64,000 bases of DNA from positions 416,001 to 480,000 of the forward strand of contig CAWIBO010000005.1 of the NCBI GenBank assembly GCA_963834385.1. The letters are read 5' to 3'. Numbering within the stretch: position 1 is the first letter of the stretch; every line of letters starts with the position of its first letter. Below, piece by piece: positions 11,503 to 40,886 of the stretch. Source of the stretch: an uncultured Verrucomicrobiae bacterium. GTDB taxonomy: Bacteria; Verrucomicrobiota; Verrucomicrobiia; Chthoniobacterales; UBA10450. Under the pieces are notes generated by a model. That model made no database searches, was not told the origin of the DNA, and worked only from the letters and a program-made list of their open reading frames with translations. Made by a program: the position numbers and the translations under genes.

Positions 11503-11514
11503 CGAAAGGTTTGA

Positions 11515-11530
11515 TGTGATGGAGTGCGCA
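11515..11530. promoter_or_regulatory. Possible CRP-family binding site
   Basis: TGTGA-tggagt-GCGCA, an 8/10 match to TGTGA-N6-TCACA, in the short divergent intergenic region. Confidence 0.3.
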
Positions 11531-11567
11531 TGTTGCCTGTTTACAACCCTGCGAGGCAACGACCGTT

Positions 11568-12401
11568 TTGAAGCGAACCCTTCTAATCATGGCTGCCGGC
11601 GCGCTGGCTATCGGCGGTGCAAACGGCGCCGAACCGTTGACCGAGGGCACTTTTACCGAGGTCGTGCGCGACGTGGCGGTGATTGACGCACAGACGCAGC
11701 AGGCGGTCTCAGCCTCCCGGAACGGGACCGTGCGCGCGCCCAACCTGGTGCGGACCGGCCCGGCCTCGCGCGCGGAGCTTTCGTCGCCTGACCAGAGTGT
11801 GACGCGGATCGGCGCCAACACCGTCTTTTCGTTTGTCCCCTCCGAGCGCGAGCTGCAATTGCAGAAGGGGAGCGTGCTCTTCCATACGCCGTCCGGCAAA
11901 GGCGGGTTGAAGGTGGAGACCAGCGGCGCCTCGGCTGCGGTTCTCGGCACCACCATCATTATTGTGGCCACGCCGAACGGCGGGTTCAAGATCATCGTGC
12001 TGGAAGGGAAAGCCCGTGTTTTCCTGCCCGGTATGGCGGCGCGCATCGTCGGGGCCGGCCAACTGGCCTTTGTTCTTCCGGGGCAGAAACGACTTGGGCC
12101 CGTCCTCACGATCAACCTGGCCAAGCTCGTGGCCGGGGCCAGGCTTGTGCATGGATTCGAAAACGGCCTGCCCTCCATGCCGGCGATTGAGGCGGCCATC
12201 GCCCAGCAACAGCAGATGCTCGCGTCCGGCGAGGCAACTGATACCGGCGAGCCCGCAGATACCGCGGCGGGAAAACCGGGCAATAGCGTGGACGATACCC
12301 ACGAACTGATCGCGCTGAACGTGCGCGGATTTTACGGGACCCCGAAGAAAGACGCGTCCGGCCAGGGGGGATTCATCCAGCCGACGCCTCCCCCGTTTTG
12401 A
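11568..12401 (+). CDS. Exported FecR-domain protein
   Basis: Signal peptide; VRTGPASRAEL...RIGANT...LQKGSVL...AAVLGT...VLEGKA FecR pattern. Confidence 0.85.
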   Translation: MKRTLLIMAAGALAIGGANGAEPLTEGTFTEVVRDVAVIDAQTQQAVSASRNGTVRAPNLVRTGPASRAELSSPDQSVTRIGANTVFSFVPSERELQLQKGSVLFHTPSGKGGLKVETSGASAAVLGTTIIIVATPNGGFKIIVLEGKARVFLPGMAARIVGAGQLAFVLPGQKRLGPVLTINLAKLVAGARLVHGFENGLPSMPAIEAAIAQQQQMLASGEATDTGEPADTAAGKPGNSVDDTHELIALNVRGFYGTPKKDASGQGGFIQPTPPPF

Positions 12402-16147: not shown

Positions 16148-18478
16148 TTACTTCGATTTCATGACCCAGACGCCGTTCCACTCGCCTGCGGGCGGGTTGG
16201 CCTTGAGGTACTCGCAGCGGTTGATGTAGGTCTGGCTCAGTTTGTCGCCCGGGTGCAGCGCGAGGACCTCGCGGAACTGGGCGATCGCGCGGTCGAAATC
16301 GCCTGCCCGATAGTATTTCAGGCCGCCCCGGAACTGGTTGATCGCCTCGGGCATGCTGGGAAACGTCTCGTCAGAATGAAAATCGAGGATTTCGTGGATG
16401 GCGACCGGCTCGGTCTTGCCTTTCACGATCACCAGATCGATCTCGCGTGACCGGTAGGTGCCGCGCAGTTTGCGGTAGGTGTTGTCGCTGCAGAGGATCT
16501 GCGCGGAATATTCCTTGCAGGCGCTTTCCAGGCGCGAGGCCAGGTTGACCCCGTCGCCGATGACGGTGTAATCCATCCGCTTGGGCGAACCGATGTTGCC
16601 GGAGACGATGGTGTCGGTGTTCAGGCCGATGCCGATCTGGATCGGCTTTTGTCCGCGCCCGGCCCGCTGCCGGTTCAGGCCGTCGAGCTGCCGGATCATG
16701 GCAATGGCGGCGCGCATGGCGCGGTCGGGGTCGTCATCGTGCGGCACCGGAATGCCGAACTCGGCCATGATGGCGTCGCCGATGAACTTGTCGAGCATGC
16801 CGCCCTCCTCGGCGATGCAGTTGACCATGAGGGAGAAATATTCGTTGAGGAGGGCGACCGTGCCCGGGGCGCCGACCTCCTCGGTGAGGGTGGTAAAGGA
16901 GCGGATGTCGGAGAACAAGACCGTCGCCTCGACGCTTTGGCCGCCGAGAATTTCGCCGCCGGCGGCGAGGAGCCGGTCGGCCAGGCCCGGGTCCATGTAG
17001 CGCGACATGGTCGATTTCATCCGTTTCTCGCCGCTGATGTCCTCCAGCATGAGCATGGTGCCGAGGCGCTTTTCCTTCAGGCTGATCAGCGGCTGGATGG
17101 TGAGGTTCACGTTGACCTTTTCGCCGCCGAACTCGGCCTCGGCGTCCATCAGGACATCGCTTTCATTCGTCTCGGCGACGCGCGCGATGCGATCGTTGAT
17201 CCACTGGTTGTTGGCGGCGAAAAGGTCGGTGGCCGATTTTCCGATGAGTTCCTCGTCCGTCGCGCGCAGGATGCGGTTGCCGGCGGCGTTGCAGGTATGG
17301 ATCCGGCCCTCTTCATCCAGCGTGATGACGCCGCTCGACATGCTTTCGAGGATCGACTCGTTGTAGTTCTTCATGTTCTGCACGTCATCGAAGAGATTGG
17401 CGTTCTCGAGCGCGATCGAGACCTGTGCGGTGAAGGCCTTCAGGCGCGCCTCATCCTCGTCGGTGAAAGGGCCGCCGGCCCTGTTCAACGCCTGGGTTAC
17501 GCCAATGACGCGCCCGCTTTTGTTGATCACCGGGACGCAGAGAATGGAACGGGTGAAATATCCGGTCTTTTTGTCAAAGGCCGGGTTGAACCGGAGATCG
17601 GCATAGGCGTGCGGGATGTTGACGCTTTTGCCCGACTGGAAAACGGTGCCGGCGATGCCGGCGTGGTCGGGCAGCCGGAGCTGAACGGCGTTCAAGCCTT
17701 CGCCCACTTCGGACCAGAGCTCCTTCGTCTTTGGATCGTGCAGGAAGAGAGTGGACCGGTCCGCCTTGAGCATGCGGGTGGCCTCGCTCATGACGCGCCG
17801 GAGCAGGAGGGACAGATCGAGCGAGCTGGTGATATCCGCGACCAGGTCGAGGAATTCCATTTCCTGCTGGCGCGTTTTCCGCATCTTTTCCACGAACTGC
17901 GAGCTTTGCAGGGCGACCGAGGCCTGCGTGGCCATGGCCTCGAGCAGGTCGAGATCGTCCATGGTGAACTGTTCTTCACGTTTGTTCAGGGCCTGGACCA
18001 CGCCGATGACGTCGCCGCGCGCCGTCTTGATCGGGGCGCAGAGGATGGAGCGGGTGGTGAAGTTGGTCTGCTCGTCCACGTCCCGGTTGAAGCGGGGATC
18101 GGAGTAGGCGTCGGGCACGATCTCGCCGCAGCCCTGCTGGAAGACGGCGCCGGCGATGCCGCTGTTGTTCAGGATGCGGATCTCACGGTGGAACGTTCCC
18201 TGCGCCACCCGGGAATAAAGCTCGTTCGTGGCCGCGTCGTTCAGGAAGAGGGTGCCGCGTTCCGCGTTCGTTTCCGCGGTCACAATTTCGACCAGGGTGG
18301 CGAGCAACTCGTCGAGGCTGTCGATGGCGGCGACGCGGCGGCTGAGCTGGAGCAGGCGTTCGGTCTGGCGCAGGCGCGACCGGAGCAGGGCCAGCGTCTC
18401 GCGCGGCGGCTTTTCCTTCGTCCCGCCGCGGCGGGCGGTTTTTGTCCCGCCCGGGGCGCCGTTACGATCAGCGGCCAT
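16148..18478 (-). CDS. GAF-GAF-PAS class III adenylate cyclase
   Basis: Two GAF domains (GIAG...DxRFN..D..T.FTTRSILC.P), a PAS domain, and canonical SDIRSFT, DKFIGD, DYTVIGDGVNLASRLE; TPR-like tail. Confidence 0.93.
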   Translation of the reverse strand: MAADRNGAPGGTKTARRGGTKEKPPRETLALLRSRLRQTERLLQLSRRVAAIDSLDELLATLVEIVTAETNAERGTLFLNDAATNELYSRVAQGTFHREIRILNNSGIAGAVFQQGCGEIVPDAYSDPRFNRDVDEQTNFTTRSILCAPIKTARGDVIGVVQALNKREEQFTMDDLDLLEAMATQASVALQSSQFVEKMRKTRQQEMEFLDLVADITSSLDLSLLLRRVMSEATRMLKADRSTLFLHDPKTKELWSEVGEGLNAVQLRLPDHAGIAGTVFQSGKSVNIPHAYADLRFNPAFDKKTGYFTRSILCVPVINKSGRVIGVTQALNRAGGPFTDEDEARLKAFTAQVSIALENANLFDDVQNMKNYNESILESMSSGVITLDEEGRIHTCNAAGNRILRATDEELIGKSATDLFAANNQWINDRIARVAETNESDVLMDAEAEFGGEKVNVNLTIQPLISLKEKRLGTMLMLEDISGEKRMKSTMSRYMDPGLADRLLAAGGEILGGQSVEATVLFSDIRSFTTLTEEVGAPGTVALLNEYFSLMVNCIAEEGGMLDKFIGDAIMAEFGIPVPHDDDPDRAMRAAIAMIRQLDGLNRQRAGRGQKPIQIGIGLNTDTIVSGNIGSPKRMDYTVIGDGVNLASRLESACKEYSAQILCSDNTYRKLRGTYRSREIDLVIVKGKTEPVAIHEILDFHSDETFPSMPEAINQFRGGLKYYRAGDFDRAIAQFREVLALHPGDKLSQTYINRCEYLKANPPAGEWNGVWVMKSK

Positions 18479-18920
18479 GGGTTTCAAGCTGTTGCCGGAG
18501 GAGGGCGATGGTTTCCCGCAACTGGCGCGCTTCGTCTGCGGCCCTTTGTTTCACCTGCTCCAGGGCGGTGGCCTGTTCGTGGGCCTGCCGTTCCATCTCG
18601 TCGCGCAGGGTGGCGATGGTGGCGTGCAATTGCCGGGCCTCATCTTTCCCGGAGGCCTGGGTCGCCTGCACGGCCTCGCGTTTGGCCAGGTCGAGTTCCT
18701 CCATTTGCGCGCGCAAACTCCCGATGGTGGCCTGGAGCTGCTGCGCTTCGCCCCGGCCGGCAGCGCGCGCGGCCTGCACCTCCTCCTGGCGCGCCGCCTG
18801 CAAACTCTCCATCTCCTCGCGCAGGGCTGCGATGGTGTTCCTCAAGTGCCGCGTCTCCGTTTGCAGACGGTACGTCTCGGCCGCGGCGTCCTGGTCGATC
18901 AGATCGGTCTTCTCCGGCAC
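18468..18920 (-). CDS. Small coiled-coil protein with 36-aa repeats, overlapping the cyclase start
   Basis: Four ExxxLxxTIxxLRxxxE motifs at 36-aa spacing; stop overlaps the cyclase ATG; GTG 18920 chosen as start. Confidence 0.7.
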   Translation of the reverse strand: MPEKTDLIDQDAAAETYRLQTETRHLRNTIAALREEMESLQAARQEEVQAARAAGRGEAQQLQATIGSLRAQMEELDLAKREAVQATQASGKDEARQLHATIATLRDEMERQAHEQATALEQVKQRAADEARQLRETIALLRQQLETHGR

Positions 18921-19002
18921 CCCACAAGTGTCGCGAATAAGGATGGGCGCCCGCAAGAGGGAAGTGGGGGCCGGCTCAGGTCTGAGCCGCCCCCAGCCAG
19001 GC

Positions 19003-22000
19003 CTACTTCATGATGTTTGGCTCGAGCGTTGTAAGCTTCGACCAGGCCGACGCCGGTCGTGTTGCTCGCTCCCTTGACGATGGCGGTGTTAAGTCGGCCG
19101 TGCCCGGGGAAGAAGACGAGGGCCGATTCCTTCGGGTCGGTTGGGGCCAGCCCATAAGCGGTGATCGTGGCCGCGTCCGGGGAGTTGGCCCAGTCATCGT
19201 TGCTGTCGATGAGCTGCCCGTTGGCATTATAGAGTTCCAACACGGGATCCAGGAGCGGATCAGGCACGCCGTGGGCGGCGAGGGAAGGGCCGATCGCGCG
19301 CACCACCACCTCGGCCTGGTTGTTCCCGCGCACAATGATGCCGCCGATCAGCACCTCGTCACCGGTCTGGACATGGGCCCGGGTGGAGATGTTGGCCAGG
19401 GTCGAGCCGTTGTGGATTTCCAGGTCGTAGATCTCGACCAGGCCGATCCCGGTAGTGTCGTTCTTTCCGCTCAGGACCGCGGTGTAATTGGCGTTGGCCA
19501 CAAGTTCCACCAGGATGGCCGCTTCGTTCTGTTCGTCCGGGGCCAGGCCGGTGGCGGTGATCTCATCGGCGTTGGCCGCGTCCTGCCAGTCATCGTTCTC
19601 CGCCAGGAGCATGCCGTTGCTGTCGTAGAGCTTGATGACCGGATCATCCAGGTCGCCGGTCATGTCGAGGGACGGACCCAACCCGCGGATGAGCACCGTC
19701 TTGTTCGGGATCGGGAAGCCGCGCGGGGCGCGGTCCGGGATCTGGGGCCCGCGGACAATAAAGCCGCCGATGGCCACGTTGTCGCCGGTGCCGACGTCGG
19801 CGCGCGAGGAGATTTCGGCGAACTCGCGTTCGCCGTCGCAGAAGTCGCCGATCTGGTTGTTATCGGAATCGGCCTGGTTGGCGTTGGAGACCAGCGGGCA
19901 GTTATCCTCGGTGTCATTGACGCCGTCGTTGTCGTCGTCGGGATCGCAGAGGTCGCCCCGGCCATCCTGGTCGTTGTCGGCCTGGTCGGTATTGGCAGTG
20001 CCTTCGCAGTTATCGATGTCGTCGCAGACATCGTCGCTGTCGGCATCATTGTTGATGTCGTTGGGGCAGGCGTCGCAGGCGTCACCTAAGCCGTCGGTGT
20101 CGCTGTCGAGCTGATCGGGGTTGGAGTCGGTGGGGCAGTTATCAAGGTCGCCGCAGACATCGTCGCTGTCGGCGTCATTGTTGATGTCGTTGGGGCAGGC
20201 GTCGCAGGCGTCACCTAAGCCGTCGGTGTCGCTGTCGAGCTGATCGGGGTTGGAGTCGGTCCGGACAGTTGTCAACGTCGTTCGAGATGCCGTCGCCGTC
20301 GTCGTCGTCGCCGCCGGGCTGGCCCAGAACGAGATACGCGGCTTCGCTCGGGATGCCGTTGGTGAAGACGGTGACCAGGGCCGGGCCTTCCGGGAAACCG
20401 GAGATGGGGGTGGAAGTGAAGCTGGTGTCCGACCAGCCGAGGGTCATATCGACGAGGAGAAAGCGGACCTGCTCGCTGTCGAGCCGGCGCAACTGGACCA
20501 CGGGGTAATTGGTGGAGGAATCCTGGAAGTTGCCGCCGGAGGCCTGGGAGATGCCCTGGAAGCGGAGACCTGTCAGTTCAAGTTGGCCGTCGGGGAGGAC
20601 GAAACGGCGAGACGGTGAGAATCTCCGGCTGCCAGGCAGCGCTGAAGCCAAGTCCCACGTCATAAAGCTCCGCGCTGGCGAGAGTGCCGCTGTCCGTCAT
20701 CGCCGCCGGCGACGAGGACCTTGCCATTGGGCAGGAGGGTGGCCGTGTGAACATACCGCGCGGTGGCGAGGCTGCCGGTGGGGCTCCAGGGGCCGGTGGC
20801 CGGGTCATAAAGCTCCGCGCTGGCGAGAGGGCCGCTGCTCCCAAAGCCGCCGGCGACGAGGACCTTGCCATTGGGCAGGAGGGTGGCCGTGTGTATGATG
20901 CCGCGCGGTGGCGAGGCTGCCGGTGGGGCTCCAGGAGCCGGTGGCCGGGTCATAAAGCTCCGCGCTGGCGAGAAGGCGAGACTGCTATCAGCGCCGCCGG
21001 CGACGAGCGACCTTGCCATTGGGCAGGAGGGTGGCCGTGTGCTGAATACCGCGCGGTGGCGAGGCTGCCGGTGGAGCTCCAGGTGCCGGTGGCCGGGTCA
21101 TAAAGCTCCGCGCTGGCGAGAACGCCGCTGTTTCCATAGCCGCCGGCGACGAGGACCTTGCCATTGGGCAGGAGGGTGGCCGTGTGATATATCGCGCGTC
21201 GGCGAGGTTGCCGGTGGAGCTCCAGGAGCCGGTGGCCGGGTCATAAAGCTCCGCGCTGGCGAGAATGCTGCTGCTGCCAAAGCCGCCGGCGACGAGGACC
21301 TTGCCATTGGGCAGGAGGGTGGCCGTGTGAGAAGACCGCGCGGTGGCGAGGTTGCCGGTGGGGCTCCAGGGGCCGGTGGCCGGGTCATAGAGCTCCGCGC
21401 TGGCGAGAGCGCTGCTGCCGTCCCATAGCCGCCGGCGACGAGGACCTTGCCATTGGGCAGGAGGGTGGCCGTGTGAACAGTACCGCGCGGTGGCGAGGCT
21501 GCCGGTGGGGCTCCAGGAGCCGGTGGCCGGGTCATAAAGCTCCGCGCTGGCGAGGCTGTCGCTGCCACTCATGGCCGCCGGCGACGAGGACCTTGCCATT
21601 GGGCAGGAGGGTGGCCGTGTGACGATACCGCGCGGTGGCGAGGTTGCCGGTGGGGCTCCAGGAGCCGGTGGCCGGGTCATAAAGCTCCGCGCTGGCGAGA
21701 CGGCCGCTGGTCGCTAAGCCGCCGGCGACGAGGACCTTGCCATTGGGCAGGAGGGTGGCCGTGTGATAATTCCGCGCGGTGGCGAGGCTGCCGGTGGAGC
21801 TCCAGGTGCCGATGTCCGGGTCATAAAGCTCCGCGCTGGCGAGAACGCCGCTGTCCCACGCCGCCGGCGACGAGGACCTTGCCATTGGGCAGGAGGGTGG
21901 CCGTGTGAAGATACCGCGCGGCTGGCGAGGCTGCCGGTGGAGCTCCAGGTGCCGATGTCCGGGTCATAAAGCTCCGCGCTGGCGAGAGGGGTGCAACTGC

Positions 22001-22794
22001 TCCAACGCCGCCGGCGACGAGGACCTTGCCATTGGGCAGGAGGGTGGCCGTGTGATCATACCGCGCGGTGGCGAGGCTGCCGGTGGAGCTCCAGGTGCCG
22101 GTGTCCGGGTCATAAAGCTCCGCGCTGGCGAGAACGCTCTGCTGCCAAAGCCGCCGGCGACGAGGACCTTGCCATTGGGCAGAAGGGTGGCCGTGTGAGA
22201 ATACCGCGCGGTGGCGAGGTTGCCGGTGGAACTCCAGAGGCCGGTGGCCGGGTCATAAAGCTCCGCGCTGGCGAGACGGCTGCTAGTCCCATCGCCGCCG
22301 GCGACGAGGACCTTGCCATTGGGCAGGAGGGTGGCCGTGTGATAATACCGCGCGGTGGCGAGGCTGCCGGTGGAGCTCCAGGAGCCGGTGGCCGGGTCAT
22401 AAAGCTCCGCGCTGGCGAGAGTGCTGACTGCTGCCAAGAGCCGCCGGCGACGAGGACCTTGCCATTGGGCAGGAGGGTGGCCGTGTGAACATACCGCGCG
22501 GTGGCGAGGCTGCCGGTGGGGCTCCAGGAGCCGGTGGCCGGGTCATAAAGCTCCGCGCTGGCGAGAGCGCTGCTGCCAAAGCCGCCGGCGACGAGGACCT
22601 TGCCATTGGGCAGGAGGGTGGCCGTGTGAAAATACCGCGCGGTGGCGAGGCTGCCGGTGTCGCCAAAGGTGAAAGGCGAAGCTTCGGCTAGCGGCGCAAA
22701 AAACGTTGTCGCCAAAGCCAGCCAAAGGAGGCAGAAGCCAAAGAGGCCGGTGGGAAGAACGTGACGGAGACGGACGAGACAGGGGAGTATTCAT
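19003..22794 (-). CDS. Large secreted protein: 14 kelch repeats + linker domain + thrombospondin type 3 repeats + duplicated ISxR C-terminal domain (many frameshifts)
   Basis: Signal peptide (..[23 protein letters not shown]); repeated [26 protein letters not shown]...LASAELYDP; DxDxDGxGDACD repeats; [13 protein letters not shown] and [13 protein letters not shown]; reconstructed end YNLEPNIMK* at 19003. Confidence 0.85.
20023..20260. repeat. Direct repeat of about 109 nt (129-nt period) within the TSP3 region
   Basis: 20023-20131 and 20152-20260 differ at one position by eye. Confidence 0.85.
20660..22660 (-). repeat. Tandem array of 14 near-identical ~144-bp kelch-coding units
   Basis: The core gacgaggaccttgccattgggcaggagggtggccgtgtg occurs 14 times (two copies with a single change) at about 144-nt spacing. 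Confidence 0.95.
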
Positions 22795-22982
22795 GGAGGA
22801 GGTGGGGTTAAGCCGGTGGTGGTCCGCCTCGTAACCAGCCGTCCTCCCTCGTGAAGATGACGTCCGGTTCCAGTGCCGACCTGGTGATTAGCGCCAGCGC
22901 CGGCGGCGCTGCGCCGGCAAACGCCGGCTGCATCAGCCGGCTCCGGAGGAACGTCGAGACGTCGATGACTCGATCGCCGCGG

Positions 22983-23042
22983 AGACTGCGGAGACCGAAT
23001 CTCGGCGTCAAGCGGAAAAACGTATTCTAATTAAAAAATTAA
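22983..23042 (-). promoter_or_regulatory. Putative sigma70 promoter of the kelch gene with an AT-rich UP-like element
   Basis: Minus strand TTGACG (23011-23006), 17-nt spacer, CAGTCT (22988-22983), preceded by aattttttaattagaatacgttttt. Confidence 0.45.
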
Positions 23043-23296
23043 TGCCGCGAGTGCCGCGGGACGACGAGCGCGCACCAGAGCATGGATCGCGGGGGCCCAG
23101 GTGATCCGCTCTCGCGAAGTGGCAAACGGAAGATCGCGTCAACGACATGGTGTCAGGGACGCGATCGGCGAAAGAACTACAGAATTGCCAGAATCGGCGA
23201 CAAGAGTGAAAACGCGCCCGCCGTATTAGTCTTGGGAGGGTTGTACCGGGATCGGTTCGCGCAGAGAGCACCGGAGCGCAATCGTGGATCCGATCC

Positions 23297-24085
23297 CTAG
23301 GAAGAAACCTTGACCGTGACGGTGACGAAGTCGCTTTCCCAGTCGAAGCCTGCCTTGGCTGATTTTCGCAAATCCGTTCCGCGCAGAAGCCAGCGACCAC
23401 TTTTCGGGAGTTGGAAGGTGACAAAACCCTCCGCATCAGTCTCCCGGGTTTCGCCGCCAGTTTCGCCTTCGCGCAGAGCGTTGACCCGAAAACCGGGAAG
23501 TGGTTTGCCATTCCTCAAGGCTCGCACCGCAAACGATGCGCCGGGGGTCAGGCGGGTGGGATCCTGCGTGGGGACCAGCTCCAGGGCAAGGCCCGCCGGC
23601 TCTTTCCACGAAGAATCATCGGCGTCGCCGACCCTGATGAACGTGGTCGCATGTTTGGTGTAGGATTCGCGGAAGCTCTTCGCCTTCATGGCTTCTGCGC
23701 GTGTTTCCGCGGAGACACTGATCTCCTCGAGATATTCCTTCACCTGGGCCGGGGTGAGCTCGATCGAGCGCGCGGGCGACTCGAGCCAGACCAGCGCGAT
23801 CCCGGGCTTGGCGGCCGCTCCGCGAAATTTCATTGATTGCTTTCCCGGTGGCGAATCCTTCAGTCGAAATGTCTGCCCGGCGAGGCGGACCTGGACAAGG
23901 CGTTCCTTGTTGGGTTTGGGTGCGGAATCGAGCGCGGGAAACGCCATGCCGCTGGTCAGCTCAACCGTAATGGTCTGGCCTGGGGCGAGGGCGAACTTCG
24001 CCGGCATCAGCCAGGTGTCGTGCCCGTAAAGCAGACTCGCGCCGCCCAAAAACGCGAGGCAAATGAAAATCGCGCGCTTGTTCAC
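23297..24085 (-). CDS. DUF4198 domain periplasmic protein
   Basis: Signal peptide then HDTWL; GLALELVP..DP, TDAEG, GRWLLRG. Confidence 0.8.
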   Translation of the reverse strand: MNKRAIFICLAFLGGASLLYGHDTWLMPAKFALAPGQTITVELTSGMAFPALDSAPKPNKERLVQVRLAGQTFRLKDSPPGKQSMKFRGAAAKPGIALVWLESPARSIELTPAQVKEYLEEISVSAETRAEAMKAKSFRESYTKHATTFIRVGDADDSSWKEPAGLALELVPTQDPTRLTPGASFAVRALRNGKPLPGFRVNALREGETGGETRETDAEGFVTFQLPKSGRWLLRGTDLRKSAKAGFDWESDFVTVTVKVSS

Positions 24086-24519
24086 GGCGCCAGCGCTTCG
24101 GCGGGATATTGGGCTTTCACCAGCTTGAGCGCGGCCTGGAGCTTCCGGAATTGCACTCGCGTCATCGGCATGTCGCTCTTGTCGGCGGCGTGATGGACGC
24201 TGTCCGCCAGGCGAAGGGCCTGGGCCAGGGCCGAACTGAGGCGGGTGGCCTTCTCTCCGGTGACCATGGGGCTGTTCTTCTCGAGGTAACGCAGTCCCGA
24301 CGAAACCTTCGCTTCCAGGTCATGGATGGCCTGGTACTGTTTGGCTTCAATCGCCGCCTCGATAGCGCGCATGTTCTCCTCCACGACCTTCCAGGCGGCA
24401 CCCGTCCCGGCGTGATCTTCCGCCGGTGCGGCATGGGAATGTTCATCTCCGTCGTCGTGGGCAAAAACAGGAATCACCCCAAGGAAGAGGGCGAGGAGGC
24501 AAAGGCGCACGGATCTCAT
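24082..24519 (-). CDS. Exported His-rich helical protein, possibly metal-binding
   Basis: Signal peptide then HDDGDEHSH; 4-bp overlap with the DUF4198 gene. Confidence 0.6.
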   Translation of the reverse strand: MRSVRLCLLALFLGVIPVFAHDDGDEHSHAAPAEDHAGTGAAWKVVEENMRAIEAAIEAKQYQAIHDLEAKVSSGLRYLEKNSPMVTGEKATRLSSALAQALRLADSVHHAADKSDMPMTRVQFRKLQAALKLVKAQYPAEALAP

Positions 24520-24610
24520 AGGTCAGCGTAGAGCGAAATCGCATTACAAGCCAGTCCCCGGGGGCGATTTCTCCACGCATTCGGACCGGCAGGTGCGAAC
24601 TTTCTGGCGT

Positions 24611-25444
24611 ATGCGTGCCATCTGGAAAGGGAGTATCAGCTTTGGTCTCGTCAACATCCCGATCGCGCTCTATTCGGCCACGCGGCGGGAGGAACTGAAG
24701 TTCCGGCTGTTGCGGGAGTCCGACCTGAGCCCGGTCAATTACAAACGGGTGGCGGAGAAGGATGGCAAGGAGGTGCCCTGGGGAAAGATCGTTAAAGGCT
24801 ACGAATACGAGAAGGGGAAATTCGTGGTCCTGAACGAGAAGGATTTCCAACGAGTCGACCTCGAGGCCACCCAGACCGTCGACATCCAGGACTTCGTGGA
24901 TGTGGAGGAGATCGACCCGATGTTTTTCTACAAGCCTTACTACCTGGAGCCGCAGAAAGGCGGCGACAAAGCCTACTCCCTCCTGCGCAAGGCGCTGGAG
25001 GAGTCAGGCAAAGTGGGCATTGCCAAGGTGGTGATCAAGACGCGGCAATACCTGGCCGGGGTCAAGGCCAAGGACGAAGTGCTCGTGCTCGAGCTGATGC
25101 ATTTTGCCGATGAATTGGCGGCGACGGACAAGCTGAAGGTGCCGCAGAAGATCACGCCCGGGAAAAAAGAGGTGGAGATGGCGCAGGCGCTGATCAAGAG
25201 CATGACGGCAAAGTGGGACCCGGAGAAGTACACCGACGATTACAAGGAAGCGCTCATGGAGGTGATTGAGGAGAAGGTGGAATCGGGCGGAAAGGAGCTC
25301 GAGGAGAAGCCGAAGAAGAAGGAGCCCTCGTCGAAGGTGATCGACCTGGTGGCGGTCCTGCAGCAAAGCCTGGAGCAATCGAAAGGCGGCAAGAAAACGA
25401 AGGGCAGGAAGAAGAGCGCGAAGACGCAGAAGAAGGCGGCCTGA
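24611..25444 (+). CDS. ku: Non-homologous end joining protein Ku
   Basis: MRAIWKGSISFGLVNIPI...IVKGYEY...PYYLEP; Lys-rich tail. Confidence 0.95.
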   Translation: MRAIWKGSISFGLVNIPIALYSATRREELKFRLLRESDLSPVNYKRVAEKDGKEVPWGKIVKGYEYEKGKFVVLNEKDFQRVDLEATQTVDIQDFVDVEEIDPMFFYKPYYLEPQKGGDKAYSLLRKALEESGKVGIAKVVIKTRQYLAGVKAKDEVLVLELMHFADELAATDKLKVPQKITPGKKEVEMAQALIKSMTAKWDPEKYTDDYKEALMEVIEEKVESGGKELEEKPKKKEPSSKVIDLVAVLQQSLEQSKGGKKTKGRKKSAKTQKKAA

Positions 25445-25775
25445 GGCGGGGGAGATTTACCACAGAGACGCAGAGGACACAGAGAAGGCGGATTTACCAC
25501 AGAGAGCACGGAGGGCACAGAGGAAAGCGGATTCGGGACCATTCACCATCCACGACTCACCATTCACGCCCATCGTCCCTCCCCGGTGGGGCGAGACTCT
25601 GTCGAGCCTGGATCACCACAGAGACGCAGAGGACGCAGGAGGATCAGGATTCTCGAGGGAAGGGAGATAGCCTGCGTCCGACTGTTCGCGGCGCGTGCTC
25701 CCAGGCTCCGCGGAGCGTCGCCCTACCGGGGGAGGCAACGCCGCGCACTATTCACGATTCACCATTTACTATTCA
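25445..25775. repeat. Mosaic intergenic repeat, copy B
   Basis: Same module order as copy A: 9-mers, heptamers, REP-left 25584-25611, 9-mers, REP-right 25701-25728, heptamers. Confidence 0.9.
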
Positions 25776-26640
25776 CGCCCCTCGTTCCTCCCACGCGGTG
25801 AGGAAAGCGTCGATTAGTTCCGGCAGTTCATCGCTGTAGCCGCCTTCAAGGATAGCTGCGGCTGGCACCCCGGATTCTTTTAACCATTCGCCACACTGGG
25901 CGAAGTCCTCCTTCTCGAGGGTCATTTCCGTGATCGGGTCGTTTATGTAGGCGTCGAACCCGGCCGAGACCAGGAGCAGGTCCACCTTCGCTTCGAGCAG
26001 ACAATCCAGCCCTCGCCGAATCTCGGTCATGTGCCGGAGAGCGGGCGGTTCCGGGCTGCACGGGATAGTTATAAATGTTTCCGGATGATTCGGTCCCGGT
26101 GCCCGGGTAACCCGGATACTGATGAATGGAAGCAAAGACAATCTGCGGGTGCCCGGCCACGATGGCTTCGGTGCCATTGCCGTGGTGCGCGTCGAAATCC
26201 CAGATCCCGACGCGCCGGACGCCGTGCGCGACAGCTTCAAGCGCGGCGATGGCGATGTGGCTGAAAAAACAAAACCCCATGGCCTGGTCGCGTGTCGCGT
26301 GGTGTCCGGGCGGGCGCATGAGACTGAAAGCCTGGCCCCCCTCCATCGCGACGTGCGCGGCGGCGACGGCTGCTCCGGCCGCGCGGGCTGCGTGCTCGTA
26401 AACGCCGGCGTAGGCAGGTGAGTCGGCGTCGAAATCTTCGCGGGCGGCCCGGATCGTCTCCAGGTGTCCGGGTGTGTGCGCGCGCAAAAGCATCTCTTCG
26501 CTCGCAGCCTCCGGCTGGCGCCATTCCCACTCCGGGTGCCTTTGTTTGAGCACGGGAACGGTGCGAGCAATCCGGGCCGGTCGCTCGGGATGCCCGGGAC
26601 GGGCAAACTCCGTTGAACGAGGGTCGTGAAGAATAATCAT
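25773..26640 (-). CDS. Histone deacetylase family (acetoin utilization AcuC-like) protein (frameshift near 26040)
   Basis: GHPERPAR, RPPGHHA, GFC and DFDAHHGNGT in one frame; SAGFDAY and LEGGY in the other. Confidence 0.9.
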
Positions 26641-26732
26641 GGGCGCAGGTCGGCCCTCTGACCTTAAAAAAGGCCGGGGCGCGCGCAACGAACGATTGTC
26701 TCCGGCGGCACCCCGCGTTATCTGGCAGGGCA

Positions 26733-28968
26733 ATGTCAGCCCGGCGCAAACAACCGCGACAGCCTGCGGGAAAACCGCTGATCGCCGCCGATGCCGCCGC
26801 GGGTCGGCCAATAATGGCGTGGCTGGTTTGCCTGATCCTGGCGGTCATGACCTGGGCCGTCTTTGGCCAGACGCTCCGGCACGATTTTGTCGACTACGAC
26901 GATCGCGACTACGTGCTGGAGAATGACGTGGTGAAACGGGGCCTGACGGCGGAAGGTTTTCGTTACGCCTTCGCCCGGGTGCACGCCGGCAACTGGCATC
27001 CGCTCACCACCTTGTCGCACATGGCCGACGTGGAGTGGCACGGGTTGAAACCGGGCGGCCACCACCTGACGAATGTGGTCCTGCACGGCGGCGCGGTTCT
27101 CCTGCTCTTTGTCGCTTTGCGCCGGATGACGGGGTCCATCTGGCGCAGCGCGCTTGTTGCGGCGATTTTTGCGATTCATCCGCTCCGCGCGGAATCGGTG
27201 GCCTGGATTGCCGAGCGGAAGGATGTCCTCAGCGGCTTCTTCTTCGTGGCCACCCTCGTGGCTTACTCGTGGTACGCCAGCCGCGTGCAATCGCACTGGC
27301 GCTACCTCACTGTGATCATCCTGGCCGTCGCCGGCATGATGTCGAAACCGATGCTGGTGACCCTGCCGTTCGTGCTTCTTTTGCTGGATGTGTGGCCCCT
27401 GCGCCGGTTCCCGACGGGGGCCTCGGGCCATTGGACTGCACTGTGGCCCCTGGTGCGCGAGAAGATCCCGCTCTTCCTGCTTTCGGCTGGATCAAGCGCC
27501 GTGACCGTTTTCGCGCAGGAGACAGCCGTAGTGCCGCTGCAGGATCTGCCGACCGGCATGCGGATGGCCAACGCCGTGGTGAGCTATTGCGTTTATTTGA
27601 TCAAACTGGTCTGGCCGATGGGCTTGGCCCCCTTTTACCCGCACCAGCACGAAACGATTCCCGTCTGGCAGATCGCGGGGGGATTGCTGTGGCTCGGCGG
27701 GGTAACCACCGCCGTGGTCTGGCAATGGCGTCGGCGGCCTTATCTGCTCGTGGGCTGGTTCTGGTATCTGGGCATGCTTTTCCCCGTGATCGGGATCATG
27801 CAGGTGGGCATGCAGGCCCGGGCGGACCGTTACACCTATCTGCCGGTCATCGGGGTGGTCTTTGCCCTGGTCTGGCTTCTGCGTGAACTGATCGGGGAGC
27901 GACGGGTTCTGAAGATCGTCCGCAGGCCTGGGTGCGCTTGTCGTTGTCGCGCTCCTGGCGCTGGCCGCCTCACGCCAGGTTTCGTTCTGGAAAAACTCTG
28001 AAATCCTCTGGCGACACGCCTTGACGATCAACAACGACAGCCCGGTGGCGCACAACGCACTCGCTTTCACCCTGATGAAAAGCAACCGGGAGACGGAAGC
28101 GGTTGGTCACCTGGAGCAGGCCATGCGTCTGCAGCCGGGGTCCGTCGAGGTCGGGGCGAATTTGGGAGTGGCCCTGACGAAGATCGGCCGGACCGGCGAA
28201 GGGATCGCCTTGTTGCGTAAAGTCGCGCAAGCGATGGGCGACGATCCAAAAGGCCACGGCTATCTCGGGACCGCCTTGGTGCGCGCGGGCCGGTTCGAGG
28301 AAGGCGCGGCCGCGTTCCGGCAGGCCCTGTTGAAGCAACCCGGCAATGCCACCACCCATTTCAAACTTGGAGAGGCGCTGGCTTCCGGTGGGCAAAGGGA
28401 GGAAGCGCTGGAGGCCTTTCGCGAATCTGTCCGGCAGGACCCAAAGGTTCCTGAGACCCGTCTCGCTCTTGGCAATACGCTGGTGGAACTCGGACGCGTG
28501 CAGGAGGCGATCCCGCACTTCGAGAGCGCTCTGGAGATCGCCCCGAAACTGGTCGACGCCCACTTCAATCTCGGGATTGCCCTGATCATGACCCAGCGAT
28601 TTTCCGAGGCGGTCGAACATTGGCGGAAGGCCTACGAGCTGGCGCCGGAGCTTCCGGGTTTGCGACAAAACCTTGCCTGGATTCTGGCGACCCATCCGGA
28701 CCCAGCGGTTCGAAACGGGGAGGAAAGTGTCGCGCTCGGTCGCGCCCTGATTGCGGCCGCTCCGCAGGATGCGATGGCGCGACGCACTTATGCGGCCGGC
28801 CTGGCGGAGGTGGGACGGTTCGAAGAGGCCGGGGCCGTGGCGAGCCAGGGGTTGGAGATGGCGCGGGCAGGCGCGAACAGCGGCCTGGCGGCTGCCTTGG
28901 AGGCGGACCTGGCGAGTTATCAACGGCAGCAACCGGTGCGCGACCAGAGTTTGGGGTCGGCACGGTGA
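26733..28968 (+). CDS. TMTC-like membrane glycosyltransferase with C-terminal TPR repeats (frameshift near 27925)
   Basis: DYDD, NWHPLT, HPLRAESVAWIAERKD, ADRYTYLP, then TPR repeats in 28021-28968. Confidence 0.85.
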
Positions 28969-29978: not shown

Positions 29979-32900
29979 TTAGAAAACGCTGATTTCGTAG
30001 AAGCGCTGTGCCGCCGGGAAGGGAGCGGTCAGGGTGCCGTCGTCCGTCCAGTGAATGATGCTGCCGTCGCCGATGTGGACCGGGCTGAGCGTCAGCCAGG
30101 CCGGCGCGTCGAGTGACGCCTTCCAGCCGACGCGATAGCTGATTCCCTCCACGCCCGGCCAGGAAAGCATGAACCCGCCGGCGGCGGGAGCAACCGCGGT
30201 GACGGAGAAACGACTCGCCTCATCGTGCGGATCGGTTCCCCCGTGATATTCGGCGCGATTGCTCGCGCCATCGCCGTCGTCATCCGCGTCGTCCTCGATC
30301 ACGCCATGGAACTGCTTCCAGGAATCGGTCACACCGTGCGGGGAAACGCCGGCGCCGAACCGGACCTCACTGTTCCCGCCCGCGTGCCCAAATTTGATAA
30401 AGAGGCAGGCGGCGGCGGGGTCGTGCCACCATCCCGACGCGCTGCTCTCCCATTCGGCCAGGGTGGCACGCGCGGCCAAACGAATGCCGTTGCGCTCAAC
30501 CCCGGCCGGGGCGGTGGCCGCCATGACCTTGAACGAAACCGGACGCGCGCTGGAATCCAGGGCAAGCCGGGTGATCCCCCCGCTGACGCTACGCTGCGCC
30601 ACCGTGCCGTCATACAGGGTGAAGCTGCCGCCGGTGCCGGGTGAAACGAGGAACCGCAGGCCGGCCGTGGGCGTGGTGATCGCGGGATTGTTGACGTAAT
30701 TCGCGTCGGCCAAAGTCTGCGGGACATCTTCCAGCAACGGGACAATGGCGTCGCCCCGGAGAAAAAGAGGGAACCGGGCCGGGTCCGCATCGGTCCACGC
30801 AACCGTCTGGGCTCCGGCGTGTGCGGCGTGCGTCCAGTAGTCATACCATGTCCCGGCCGGGAGATAGACCATGCGGGTGGTGCTGTTGGCCGTGTTCATC
30901 GGCGCCACGAGCAGTTCATTCCCCAAAAGGTAGGTGTGCCGGATGGGATGAGTGTTCGGATCCGCCTGATGCAGGAGCACGAGGGGACGGATCATTGGCA
31001 GTCCGGTCTGGCTCGCTTCCTCTGCGTAAGTGTACAGATACGGGAAGAGCTGGGTGTGGAAGCGTGCCCAGAAGACGTAGTTGGCCAATGCGGTCGCGCC
31101 GTAGCCCCACGGATACTGGCGAAGATTCCCCGGGTCGACCTGTCGATGAAGCTGCATGATCGGCGTGAGCGCGCCGAACTGCGTCCAGCGCATGAAAAGA
31201 TCGGCTGTGTTCGTCTCGAAATTACTGTTCTGGTAGCCGCCGATGTCGTGACTCCAGAGCGAAAACCCGCTCAGGGCCGCGCTTAGTCCCGCGACGATGA
31301 CGCTTTGCAGCCCGTTGCCGGCGCCAAAGTTCGGCTCGTTGTCACCCGCCCAGCCGACCGGGAAACGCTGGGTGCCGCTGAAACCGCTGCGGGCGAAAAG
31401 CACGCCGGCAGGCCCGAGCACGCTCGCCACCGTTTCATGGTAGCCGAGGCAGTAGCCGTTGCGCATCTCGACCCCGGTGCGGCCGTCGAAATAGGAGGCG
31501 TGCAGGGGAATGTAGGTCTGGGAACCGTTGCTCGTTTCGCCGTCATCGGTCTTGAATCCGCCGATGGCCGGCTCGAGCGAGGCCCCGGCCGTGGTCACCT
31601 TGCTGCCGTCGACGAGCGCCTCGAGCTGCCCCTTCAACCAGTCGCGGGCGCCGGGATTGGTGAAATCAACCGGGCTGCCGCTCCCTTTCCACCAGGGAAC
31701 CACCAGCGGCGGTCCGCCCGGGGAGCTGCGCACGAAATAATTGTTCGCCTGGCCTTCGGCGTAATTCGGCGAGGTCCCGGTGTTTTGCCCGGGCACGCCC
31801 TCGTTGTTCGAGGAGGTGTTGACGAACGGCGTCATCCAGCAAACCACCTTAAGACCGCTGCGCTGGAGAAAAGTCATCATCTCTCCGATGGAAGCGAAGC
31901 CGGGATAAGTGACGCCTTCGTAGGTGCCGGCGGTGGCCCACTGCGTCGTGTTCCAGAGGAAATCGTTGTAGGAAAATTCCCAGGGCGAATCAAAAACGAT
32001 CACGCTCGAGGGGATGCCGTGCTCGAGGAACTTCGTCACCGCGTAGCGCACCTCGCCGCCGGTGCGCCAGATATCGGAGGAAATCCACGGACCAAAGGCC
32101 CACGGAGGGGGAAGCGGCGGGCGTCCCGTGTAACCGGTGTAACGACTGAGCACATCCCGCAGATCAGGCCCGGCCACGACGTGGAACTTGAGCGAGCGAA
32201 AGAGATTCTGGACCACGTAACGGTCGGGCGCGCCGTGGCGCATGTCGAAATAGCTCTCCGCGGTGGAATCAAGATGGAACCCGTAACCCCGGCTGCTCAG
32301 AGAACCATGGCACCGGCTTGTAGGATTGGTCGCCCTTTGTGCCCGGCGGATCCCAGGTCAGCATCCGGACCCGGTTTCCCGTCTGGTTCACCGCGTTGAA
32401 TTTTTCCCCGAACCCAAAAAACTGCTCGGTGGCGTCGGAACCGGCCGTGACCAGGGTCTCAGAAGGAACAAGGCCATTCCAATCGACCACCTCAAAGGTC
32501 AGGACACCGCCGGTGTTCAGGGTGAGCCGGGTGGTGACGGTGGTGCCGCCGAGGGTCTGGACCAGTTCGAGGCCATCGGGAATGGGAATGGAGGAAACAA
32601 CGGGGCCAAGGCTGTAAAGGCGGTCGGCGATCCGGGCCGACGGCGGCGCAAAAGTGATGGCATTGGCGAGAGGCGTACCGTTCAGGTCGGGCTGGAGCAG
32701 GACGATGTGTCCGGAACCGGTGTGGATGCGGCCGGCAAAAGCGCCGCTCGTGATCTCGAGATGGTCGCCTGAGGGTTGCAGAGGCCAGGGGACAGTGAAA
32801 ACAAACGGGCTGGCGCGCGCGACTTCCTCCAGCTCGCTTGTCTGCGAGAGGGAATCGCTCCCGTGCAGGAACGTGGGCAGATGATCGGAGAACGGAACCC

Positions 32901-33741
32901 GGAGATAATATTGAATGGTATCGCCGGGGTTGAGGGCGGCGGCCGGGATCACCCCGCCGTAATACTTGTTGTTGCCGGCCTGGCTGTGAAAGGTCATGGC
33001 CGCGGACGACCAGGCCGAGTCGGTGATCTTTTTGTAAAAGACGGTGCTGCCGGTCTGCGTCTGGTTGCCGGGATCACCGGCCCCCTGGAACTGGCTGCCG
33101 TTATAGATCGTAACCCCGGCGCCGGCCCCCGGCGTGAAGGGCGAGCGCATGGTGGCGCCGCCCGGTTCGGCGCTGGAGGGAATGTGCCAGGCGTTGCCGG
33201 TGTGCGCATGGAATGCCGCGTTCGTCGTCAGGATGATCCGGTCGATGCGCAGGCCATCTTCCCGCATCCAGAGATTGACCGTGTGGGTGCCGGCCGAGGG
33301 CACGGTGATCGATCCGCCGGCGGCGCCACCCTGCAGGGTGTTGCTCCACTGCCAGGCGTCATACTGCGAAAGGGTGAAAGCTGCGCTGCCCGCTCCATTC
33401 AGGCCCACGTGCGCCGAATCGTCGTTGCCGGTCGCGGCGTGTCCGCGCAGCCAGACATAACGCACTCCGCTGCCCTGGAACGTGACCGCGAACTGGAGCT
33501 CGGGACTGGTGGCGCCCGCGGCGAGGTTGGCGGTGTTGTTGGGCAGGCTTTCCATGTAGCCGCTCCCGGAGAAGCCCGGGACGCTTTGCCCATGGGTCCA
33601 GTCATGTCCCGAGCGGGGCGAATTGTTCACCGAAAAATTCTCCGCCTCGAGCACGACCACGCCGTTGCTTTCGACGACCTGGGCAGAAAGAGGCAGGGAC
33701 GCCGCGAGCAGGCAGAGGGCTGGGAGCAGGACCCGCTTCAT
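29979..33741 (-). CDS. Secreted multidomain glycoside hydrolase family 31 (frameshift near 32290)
   Basis: Signal peptide from ATG 33741; FFGFGEKF, YKPVPW, YTGRPPLPPPWAFG, GFKTDDGE (nucleophile), WAGDN (acid/base), HDIGGY, RWTQFG; C-terminal RFYEI domain. Confidence 0.88.
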
Positions 33742-33833
33742 CAAGGGCGGGGATGGTATCACCCTCGCGGAAGAGGAGCGATGGAAAAGGAAAGGGATTG
33801 CCAAAGGAAGCGGGAGGTCGCAGTTGTAGGCCC

Positions 33834-39376: not shown

Positions 39377-39980
39377 GACGTCGCTCCGCGGCTTCACGCT
39401 CCTGGAGATCGTGCTCGCCGTCCTGATTCTCTCGATGATGTCCTTCGCCATCTATCGGTTTGTGACTTCCAACCTCATTGCCGTCCGTCTTTCCGGCGAA
39501 CAAATGAGCGCGGACGAACGCTACGACGGCTTGCAGGCGTTGCTCACTGCGCAGTGGCAGTCGATCAGCCCGGGCCAGGGCGCCCTGCTGGGCGAGCCGC
39601 TCAAGATGAACGATCGGTCCCGGGATGAGATCACCTGGCTTTCCCCCGCCGGGCCGGGGCTGCTCACCCGCTATGCCCAGGGGGAATACAAGGTGACCCT
39701 CCGCCTGCGGCCGTCGCCCAACCAGCCGGATCGCATGGAACTGGGGTTGTTCCGCCGGCCGCGCTCCGCGCCGGAAGGGAGCGGCGAAGGTTCGTGGGTG
39801 AGTTTGCTCGACCGGGTGGAAAGCGTTGAAATAAAATACTTCGATCCGCGGGTGAATACCTGGGTGACGCGCTGGACGGATACGATTGCGCTGCCGCGCC
39901 TGGTGCGCCTCGTGATCGGGCGCACCGACACCGCCAAACCATGGGAAGGCGTTATCGCGATCGCGCGAACCCCGTTATGA
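39357..39980 (+). CDS. Minor pseudopilin (GspJ-like)
   Basis: RGFTLLEI; C-terminal W..RW...LPRLVRL. Confidence 0.8.
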   Translation: MSTASARTSLRGFTLLEIVLAVLILSMMSFAIYRFVTSNLIAVRLSGEQMSADERYDGLQALLTAQWQSISPGQGALLGEPLKMNDRSRDEITWLSPAGPGLLTRYAQGEYKVTLRLRPSPNQPDRMELGLFRRPRSAPEGSGEGSWVSLLDRVESVEIKYFDPRVNTWVTRWTDTIALPRLVRLVIGRTDTAKPWEGVIAIARTPL

Positions 39981-40885: not shown

Positions 40886-40886
40886 C

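Follow-up and report, generated by a model that had tools for sequence, protein, structure and literature searches.

A repetitive fourteen-blade kelch array with two variable loops per blade in a putatively secreted protein of an uncultured Verrucomicrobiae bacterium

The window, by which we mean the whole 64-kb stretch of DNA that was analysed, carries on its minus strand a large gene whose parts follow one another in the order signal peptide, 14 kelch blades, post-kelch domain, thrombospondin type 3 (TSP3) repeats and C-terminal module (Table 1), an architecture that in genomes of the same family is found as one open frame of 918 to 1,226 aa. The ATG at 22794 opens the peptide MNTPLSRPS... 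in one frame, and the hydrophobic core and cleavage-like site lie in the frame of the kelch blades. The motif of the post-kelch domain recurs behind the kelch arrays of four relatives (L032, L033, L035 and L036) and in the consensus of the alignment of relatives described below (A1); neither for this domain nor for the C-terminal module did Pfam and NCBIfam give a family above cut-off. A 129-base tandem repeat (TRF, 20006-20280) lies within the TSP3 region, and near 20258-20265 the frame switches inside a DNCP...TDSNPDQ motif. The C-terminal module, common to many secreted proteins of the lineage, has many paralogs: the genome to which the window belongs gave 37 matches to it, and genomes of the same family gave dozens. 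Pfam assigned only Kelch and TSP_3 to the gene pieces, with no NACHT, NB-ARC or STAND NTPase domain among them. The product is presumably a secreted or cell-surface protein with a putative binding function.

Table 1. Parts of the kelch gene, with positions counted along the window
Feature	Position	Strand	Basis
Whole gene, ~1,298 codons, many frames as assembled	18899..22794	-	ORF pieces, Pfam
Start codon and signal peptide, separated by a frame break near 22778	22660..22794	-	translation
Kelch array: partial blade U0, units U1 to U13, head of blade 14	~20660..22660	-	tandem-repeat search, Pfam
Starts of U1-U13 (minus-strand reading)	22562, 22416, 22272, 22129, 21983, 21840, 21696, 21551, 21404, 21260, 21117, 20969, 20824	-	
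Start of blade 14 head	20679	-	
Post-kelch domain, contains ...WQPEI...	20300..20679	-	motif comparison with relatives
Thrombospondin type 3 (calcium-binding) repeats	19900..20300	-	Pfam TSP_3, E = 9.2e-20
C-terminal module, ~270 aa, two similar halves	18899..19830	-	matches across genomes

The tandem array of 14 kelch units described in the original prediction was recovered both by TRF (period 144, 13.8 copies, 89% matches, patches included) and by Pfam, and comprises 13 full units with a partial first blade before them and the head of a 14th behind. A kelch repeat was taken to be a unit of 44-56 residues that has a GG doublet and conserved Y, W and R residues and matches a Kelch model significantly, and on this basis the array consists of kelch repeats (Pfam Kelch_1-6), the matches being to Kelch_1, Kelch_2, Kelch_3, Kelch_4 and Kelch_6, all above the curated cut-offs (E = 5.6e-17 for Kelch_4 and 7.4e-13 for Kelch_1). 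As predicted, the differences between units fall in two patches and are not evenly spread. Over the 39 scaffold codons compared in 11 units, pS was 0.022 and pN 0.033, whereas the two codons of AR-xx-H (patch 1), compared in 8 clean units, gave a pS of 0 and a pN of 0.41, that is, an excess of amino-acid change at a few hypervariable positions. Scaffold identity from blade to blade, which reaches down to silent sites, is that of recently amplified propellers (PMC9218822), so the near-identity at synonymous positions claimed earlier holds as a measurement, but its extent may be partly inflated by consensus polishing. Selection would drive the diversity of the loops, judging from pN/pS between paralogous blades in a consensus that is possibly over-polished. 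All nine patch-1 codon pairs listed in the original prediction are present, and so is the near-fixed third-position T in a genome that disfavours it: the third base was T in 20 of 20 patch-1 codons (10 blades with a 6-base patch, U0 included), as against 12.7% of codons genome-wide (1238 long ORFs).

The two variable patches are a property of the whole family and recur in thousands of proteins from different phyla. The blade consensus and the same two patches, with loops of 5 to 9 residues, are shared by at least 7,999 proteins, and in 24 aligned full-length relatives (alignment A1) the consensus has its 'x' at just the ARxxH and GGxxxxxxL positions in 14 of 14 blades. Close orthologs of the array itself were not found, since megablast of positions 18001-24000 of the window against the fetched loci found nothing that reached 600 bases. 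The window protein being broken as assembled, the intact 14-blade relative L032, from the same family, was modelled with AF2 in its place, giving an all-beta model with four strands per repeat (pLDDT 88.2). Against PDB sequences an intact relative matched best the Keap1/KLHL kelch domains (E = 3e-55), and the only structures retrieved by Foldseek were six-bladed kelch domains, with a TM-score, normalised to the target, of ~0.8. The best matches in sequence or fold, Keap1/KLHL kelch and the designed SAKe6 (PDB 2FLU, 6HRL, 7ONC, 8PJR), differ from the array in having six blades and in being eukaryotic or designed. The variable patches correspond to two loops, D-A (AR-xx-H) and B-C (after GG), and align to the D-A and B-C loops of these proteins. 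We take the contact residues of Keap1 to sit on the corresponding loops, and this homology, together with what is known of kelch structures, supports a ligand-binding face that would be formed by the D-A and B-C loops.

Judged on its sequence, the array appears to be a new, secreted member of the highly repetitive propellers described by Pereira & Lupas (2022, PMC9218822), in which blades are near-identical in DNA with few synonymous differences and among whose lineages Kelch is included. It differs from the propellers of that report in being part of a secreted protein that also carries TSP3 repeats and a C-terminal module with paralogs; PMC9218822, in its passages on such propellers, does not mention any bias in the third base of variable codons. 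One member, WRAP (Npun_R6612) of Nostoc punctiforme, has 14 near-identical WD40 blades that are reported to fold as two 7-bladed propellers (PMC9218822). The window protein resembles WRAP in its fourteen blades and in their near identity at silent sites, but WRAP is a WD40 protein with its blades at the C-terminus of an intracellular STAND ATPase, whereas here the blades are kelch, a signal peptide precedes them and no NTPase domain is present. A second likeness, that of conserved repeats with few hypervariable positions, is to the WD40 repeats of the Podospora het-d/het-e NLRs, in which strong internal conservation goes together with diversifying selection at a few hypervariable positions (PMC12222747, PMC4986451); those proteins are eukaryotic, intracellular and WD40, in contrast to the window gene, which is without NACHT or NB-ARC. 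A secreted 14-blade kelch protein would thus join the known recently amplified propellers with variable binding faces, and such propellers may serve in the recognition of partners that change, for instance prey, phage, polysaccharide or kin.

The gene is heavily interrupted as assembled. Units U1-U13 measure 146, 144, 143, 146, 143, 144, 145, 147, 144, 143, 148, 145 and 145 bases, 9-10 of the 13 are not a multiple of 3, and between neighbouring blades the kelch reading shifts frame in 6 of 11 pairs, with all three frames in use. The array contains at least 14 indels that break the frame and the rest of the gene two, which makes at least 16. Four of the 14 array indels are in the AR-xx-H patch, in U8, U10, U11 and U12 (the four units in which patch 1 is not 6 bases long), eight are in the loop after GG and two are in the scaffold, in U11 and, immediately ahead of the patch, in U5. 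Hence 12 of the 14 fall within two patches estimated to make up ~19% of the unit, and array indels (14) outnumber single-unit scaffold substitutions (~7). The codon-level reading of the loops in the original prediction is affected accordingly: the NNT codons are there as listed, but it missed that the loop after GG is out of frame in 8 of 13 cases and that unit lengths range from 143 to 148 bases, and a codon-level reading of the loops is valid solely for U0, U2, U6, U9, U10 and U12.

These breaks are most likely errors of the long-read consensus and not biology, since housekeeping genes are split in the same way, frame switches in related arrays go with Nanopore-only assembly, and short-read contigs read in frame. 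Five other genes of the window are divided between overlapping frames, namely a class II aaRS (core and anticodon domain), an NAD kinase (N and C domains), an HDAC, a GH31 and an aminotransferase class III gene. Among 80 named related loci, adjacent blades switched frame in 5 of the 17 from MFD records (15 of 115 pairs), which are Nanopore-only assemblies with one Medaka polishing (PMC12313526), and in none of the 63 others (0 of 332 pairs; Fisher p = 2.6e-4); in four arrays from outside the MFD records whose internal identity is equally high (L040, L064, L114 and L050), the frame never switched. The stretch is represented in only four soil runs, all of one study and with 6-9% of the sampled words present in each, which has no bearing on habitat. 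The contigs of these runs, at 90-100% identity, belong to relatives or other strains and span only a small part of the array and none of the out-of-frame loops, with 21472-22139 left bare in every run. Wherever a contig of a near relative does cover a break, it is in frame: a contig of run X4 has one base fewer at 22778, which would bring start codon and signal peptide into one frame, at 20258 or 20265 one base is missing from a contig of run X2 and from one of run X4, and a U10-like patch stands in frame in one contig. The loop of U2, in frame as assembled, is matched by a short-read contig with no listed difference. Counting against a reading as errors, the two breaks outside the array lie in ~2 kb and are therefore denser than the five detected, by an incomplete detection, over the other ~60 kb. 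As at least 16 breaks are probably consensus error, the fine detail of the loops is not trustworthy. Codon-level reading of near-identical repeats in MAGs built from long reads only is unsafe more generally, because errors of the consensus accumulate at just those positions that attract most interest, and in fungal NLRs too the repeat sequence depends on the platform, a Nanopore assembly having shown single-base misassembly (PMC12222747).

Taken together, we consider it probable (roughly 0.75) that the locus is one gene, encoding a secreted or cell-surface protein with 14 alike blades and a variable binding face, without a dedicated mutator, and that its breaks are consensus errors. The blades would have been amplified recently from one blade, or be kept alike by conversion between blades, while the two D-A residues and the B-C loop would be free to vary, or selected to vary, throughout a large bacterial family, the diversity arising by ordinary point mutation, blade duplication and selection. 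Reads placed in the wrong register would disagree where the units differ, and since they would disagree only there, indel errors would pile up at the variable patches.

An alternative is that the breaks are genuine and that we are looking at a pseudogene, a disrupted and decaying repetitive kelch propeller caught in the rapid turnover proposed for such genes. Real disrupted repetitive propellers have been reported, among them a kelch of a Verrucomicrobia MAG, in a study that itself cautions about assembly (PMC9218822); the gene is broken outside the array as well, near 22778 and 20258-20265, and no further kelch gene in its own genome attests to a need for the function. Random decay, however, is not expected to produce more indels than scaffold substitutions nor to place nearly all of them in the patches, and it would leave the equally broken housekeeping genes, the restriction of frame switches to Nanopore-only records and the in-frame contigs of relatives to be accounted for separately, so that we regard a pseudogene as unlikely. 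Still less probable is a collapsed or chimeric assembly of the arrays of several strains, in which unit number, order and loops would come from no single molecule. The source is MAG-like (5 contigs, 89.6% complete), arrays of this kind pose difficulties for assembly (PMC9218822, PMC12222747), and one contig of run X2 links 21477 back to 21048. In run X1, moreover, the flanks match the window with 0-2 differences per 100 bases, whereas the array contigs match no window unit exactly and show 5-8 differences, all at variable columns. Nevertheless, 14 blades are also found in intact relatives, making the unit count plausible, and a chimera of this kind would overlap with the single secreted gene that we favour without excluding it.

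The pattern of change has much in common with that left by a diversity-generating retroelement (DGR), in which change is confined to codon positions 1-2, the third base is a fixed pyrimidine and the target is a ligand-binding surface (PMC10907252). The machinery is missing, however. The DGR-type reverse transcriptase raised in the original prediction had 0 matches (PF00078) in the window's own genome, 89.6% complete, and none in three array-rich genomes (G076, G003 and G053), while in two others (G016 and G020) RT and arrays are on different contigs. Avd-like genes (PF05635) do occur, with nine matches in the own genome, but none is in the window and none stands beside an RT. The silent or paralogous kelch cassettes also proposed there were absent: in the own genome, blastn of one unit matched the array only, a six-frame search at the protein level found the array only, and neither gave a template repeat. 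Nor is change confined to adenines, as the scaffold adenines (those of AAT, AAG, CAC, ACG and GAG among others) are the same in every unit, and the array also contains indels. A DGR, without RT, template copy or adenine specificity and with its Avd-like genes unlinked, was rejected; DGR targets also differ in being C-type lectins with one variable region, as opposed to a kelch fold with 14 tandem targets. What survives of the proposal of a homogeneous scaffold with a diversified binding face is the confinement of the differences to two loops; a dedicated system behind them, with neither RT nor second copy to its name, does not.

Active targeted loop diversification by a DGR-like or unknown agent, with a heterogeneous population garbling the consensus at the targeted sites, is compatible with the NNT pattern under a logic of AAY-templated mutagenesis, with the coincidence of substitutions and indels in the patches, with the near-identical flanks and differing arrays of run X1, with the nine Avd-like four-helix-bundle genes and with a T bias that peaks in the most homogeneous arrays and persists in Sorangium, but the missing RT and template, the unvarying scaffold adenines, the absence of Avd-like genes from the window and the fact that DGRs give substitutions, not indels, make it the least credible of these readings.

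The preference for T-ending codons lies outside the single-gene explanation preferred here. It is found at hypervariable codons also in Sorangium isolate genomes, and over 29 loci it increases with the homogeneity of the array (rho = 0.71). The bias is real, and amino-acid choice, codon context and a simple mutation-selection model do not account for it. Amino-acid composition gave expectations of 17.5, 16.2, 16.8 and 13.2 of 90, against 47, 54, 43 and 64 observed, and the effect of codon-pair context is too small (T at the third position in 16.9% of codons before CAC and 20.1% before CTC, compared to 12.7% overall). A toy codon model combining AT-biased mutation, a weak force favouring GC at third positions and strong positive selection, with arbitrary parameters, reached a third-position T of 0.41 at most and raised A as well, as opposed to 236 T and 46 A observed in four-fold boxes. 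We infer, as a decidedly doubtful proposal, that NNT at the four hypervariable codons per blade of near-identical kelch arrays might be kept or written by a strand-specific, non-DGR process in Verrucomicrobiota and in Sorangium (Myxococcota), either an unknown targeted diversification or selection for U-ending, wobble-read codons that would pace the one-at-a-time folding of identical blades, in which case the garbled consensus would be partly real heterogeneity. An excess of T-ending codons in high-GC genomes of two phyla could matter more widely. A founder effect alone is implausible in Sorangium, where only 1-3% of the constant codons end in T.

The tandem array carrying the kelch blades was recovered by Tandem Repeats Finder with a period of 144, 13.8 copies and 89% matches. 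Anchored on a 14-base motif, it comprises an incomplete opening blade (U0), 13 complete units (U1 to U13) and the start of a 14th blade, after which unique sequence takes over. In-frame pieces matched Pfam Kelch_1/2/3/4/6 above the curated cut-offs (e.g. Kelch_4, E = 5.6e-17), and a single long gene hosts the whole array (Table). Its C-terminal module matched 37 places in the window's genome and dozens across genomes of the same family, a tally that takes in the unpublished genomes G002 and G007; in these genomes the module forms the end of many large secreted proteins, and two further copies lie 8-12 kb before the window. On the 5' side, the Ku70/80-type gene (E = 1.2e-44) is 1.7 kb from the kelch gene, separated from it by a DUF4198 gene and a small ORF without a name, while two cyclases, with CHASE2 and GAF-GAF-PAS sensor domains, are found on the 3' side. 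A type II secretion/pilus-like cluster (T2SSK, PilN-like, T2SSM_b, T2SSG pseudopilin, T2SSF) is a possible export route for the kelch protein and others like it.

Features in and around the kelch gene (window positions, unless a contig, C2, C3 or C5, of the same genome is named)
Feature	Position	Strand	Details
Gene hosting the array	18899-22794	minus	
Start codon and signal peptide	5' end of 18899-22794	minus	
14 kelch blades	20659-22659	minus	Tandem Repeats Finder, Pfam Kelch
Conserved domain without name	after the 14 blades	minus	starts with a 10-residue stretch (not shown)
Thrombospondin type 3 (TSP3) repeats	within 18899-22794	minus	E = 9.2e-20
C-terminal module	18899-19830	minus	~270 residues, two similar halves; no name in Pfam or NCBIfam
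Two further module copies	C5:404485-409074		
Adenylate/guanylate cyclases	9421-11586; 16151-18550	minus	
DUF4198 gene	23297-24085		
Ku70/80-type gene	24416-25441	plus	
Histone-deacetylase-family gene	25773-26811		split; profile positions 1-208 in one frame, 228-287 in another
GH31 hydrolase	29982-33873		split between overlapping frames
Class II aaRS	33486-35191		split; core 33486-34913, anticodon-binding domain 34835-35191
Type II secretion/pilus-like cluster	39830-46373		
Region of 1.25 kb	47180-48432		G+C about 0.70
Class III aminotransferase	51003-52429		split between overlapping frames
NAD kinase	53139-54004		split; N domain 53139-53618, C domain 53354-54004
G+C dip	54001-55000		0.566
Open frame of 1,097 aa	58913-62203	plus	E1_dh, Transket_pyr, Transketolase_C, Biotin_lipoyl, 2-oxoacid_dh acyltransferase domain
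Avd-like family sites	C2:743024, C5:558249, C5:760259, C5:349580, C3:81120, C5:789487, C2:898757, C2:1006162		

With a two-blade query, 7,999 of the 8,000 candidates scored passed E ≤ 0.001; these were long proteins spread over many phyla, so the blade is not peculiar to this genome. Their shared 48-residue blade consensus varies at the same two patches and has loops 5 to 9 residues long, and when 24 full-length relatives were aligned the majority consensus was blank exactly at ARxxH (patch 1) and GGxxxxxxL (patch 2, the loop after GG) in all 14 blades. Intact genes with this architecture, in open frames of 918 to 1,226 aa, occur in same-family genomes, ranging from a single copy to many per genome. 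Among solved structures, an intact relative was best matched by designed symmetric kelch proteins (SAKe6) and by kelch domains from KLHL17, KLHL12 and Keap1, and an AF2 model of a relative's 14 blades reached a pLDDT of 88.2, with a confidence dip at residues 295-350, near the blade 7/8 boundary. In alignment, patches 1 and 2 fall on the D-A and B-C loops, which in Keap1 carry the ligand contacts. Judged from its sequence, the window array is real and ordinary and belongs to a class already known: a kelch propeller amplified recently, with probable binding-face variation in its loops, in a predicted secreted protein. Highly repetitive propellers, kelch included, have been described, as have cases of disruption and the trouble that such arrays cause in assembly (PMC9218822), and hypervariable positions together with platform-dependent sequences find a parallel in the WD40 repeats of fungal NLRs (PMC12222747).

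The core of the original prediction, a constant scaffold interrupted by variable patches, was borne out, with a pS of 0.022 and a pN of 0.033 in the scaffold (39 codons, 11 units) against 0 and 0.41, respectively, at the two AR-xx-H codons (8 clean units). All nine codon pairs listed for patch 1 occur in the array, and the claimed near-fixation of third-position T was seen in 20/20 codons (the 10 blades having a patch of 6 bases), compared with 12.7% of codons genome-wide (1238 long ORFs). The original prediction missed the irregular unit lengths and the frame-breaking indels, which are decisive for the fine codon reading. We counted 14 such indels in the array: 4 inside AR-xx-H (U8, U10, U11, U12), 8 inside the loop after GG and 2 in the scaffold (U5, just upstream of the patch, and U11, within the HTATLL...GG core). 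Unit lengths are 146, 144, 143, 146, 143, 144, 145, 147, 144, 143, 148, 145 and 145; only U2, U6 and U9 are in frame throughout, and in the ORF list the blades spread over three frames, with a switch at 6 of 11 adjacent pairs. Outside the array, the gene has one break separating the ATG from the signal peptide and another within a TSP3 motif near 20258-20265.

We consider these frameshifts most likely to be consensus errors of a long-read assembly (probability about 0.75-0.8). Five genes besides the kelch gene are divided between overlapping frames in the same 64 kb (Table), at junctions lacking long homopolymers, indicating scattered indel errors in the assembly. Among 80 named related loci fetched with the two-blade query, adjacent-blade frame switches occurred in 5/17 loci whose records bear the isolate-name tag 'MFD' (15/115 pairs) and in 0/63 of the others (0/332 pairs; Fisher p = 2.6e-4 for the locus contrast); they were absent from non-MFD arrays of equal internal identity, including those of complete Sorangium genomes. 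MFD long-read MAGs are, according to PMC12313526, Nanopore-only with one Medaka polishing round, so frame breaks in related arrays go with the way the records were assembled. One MFD locus, L039, has the symptom seen in the window: its loops run on into a frame-shifted LASAELYDP.

A true pseudogene, whose breaks would be genuine, is improbable. Substitutions outnumber indels in natural pseudogenes; here the 14 indels exceed the single-unit scaffold substitutions (about 7), and 12 of them fall within the two patches, an estimated 19% of the unit, a profile unlike decay. Consensus errors would cluster at the patches because only there do wrong-register reads disagree with the consensus. Contigs from four soil short-read runs (X1, X2 and X4 among them), which represent relatives or other strains and cover little of the array, lend weak support to an intact frame at the sites they cover: X1 flank pieces show 0-2 differences per ~100 bases, X2 and X4 contigs have one base fewer at 20258 or 20265, an X4 contig has one base fewer at 22778, an X1 contig holds an apparent in-frame version of the U10 patch, and the in-frame U2 loop has a short-read match without listed difference. 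A consensus chimeric between strains is less likely still as the source of the breaks.

Least probable of all is active diversification of the loops, the system proposed in the original prediction. RVT_1 had no match in the window's genome (89.6% complete), which also yielded no second, silent or paralogous copy of the unit at the DNA or protein level, and scaffold adenines are invariant across units. In five same-family array-bearing genomes, RT was absent from three and lay on contigs other than those of the arrays in two. Nine 23S_rRNA_IVP/Avd-like four-helix-bundle matches were found in the window's genome, none within the window, and a dedicated machine of the DGR type was rejected. One Avd-like match (C2:898757-899018) is itself divided between two frames.

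The one feature deserving follow-up is the third-base T bias, which extends beyond the window. In 90 intact blades from 12 same-family loci, T closed the first and second codons of AR-xx-H and the outermost codons of the loop (first, then last) in 47, 54, 43 and 64 blades, against 17.5, 16.2, 16.8 and 13.2 expected from the residues, whereas constant codons (n = 3,521) fitted expectation (403 against 394); z-scores and p-values overstate such contrasts, here and in the named loci that follow, because the two sets overlap in part and blades within an array are not independent. In the partially overlapping set of 80 named loci (327 blades, found in 72), 536/1,308 variable codons (41%) ended in T versus 1,511/12,797 constant (11.8%) and 21.5% of mid-loop codons, and the four-fold boxes of variable codons gave T 236, C 168, G 109 and A 46. 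The more alike the blades of an array were in DNA, the stronger the bias (Spearman 0.71, 29 loci); it reached 65% in 11 loci with a core identity of 0.80 or more, and recurred in another phylum, in the complete genomes of Sorangium cellulosum So0157-2 (28/40 variable codons; constant-codon T3 0.01), Sorangium sp. So ce375 (26/36; 0.03) and So ce388 (25/32; 0.02). Serine is encoded by TCT at hypervariable columns and AGC in mid-loop, so within a column the third base seems to be retained as positions 1 and 2 vary. Such column inheritance seems to account for T over A, but not for T itself in genomes where it is otherwise avoided; neither the choice of amino acid, nor codon context, nor a toy mutation-selection model was sufficient as a cause. 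The arrays of three complete Sorangium genomes (L050, L101, L114) also show a higher-order repeat, identical loop sequences recurring ~8 blades apart; their last two or three loop codons are NNT, and earlier loop codons for the same residues NNC (TTT versus TTC, TAT versus TAC).

Elsewhere in the window, the domains of the 1,097-aa open frame indicate that one polypeptide combines the E1 alpha, E1 beta and E2 parts of a 2-oxoacid dehydrogenase, and the 1.25-kb region of high G+C holds no ORF with the usual coding GC pattern.
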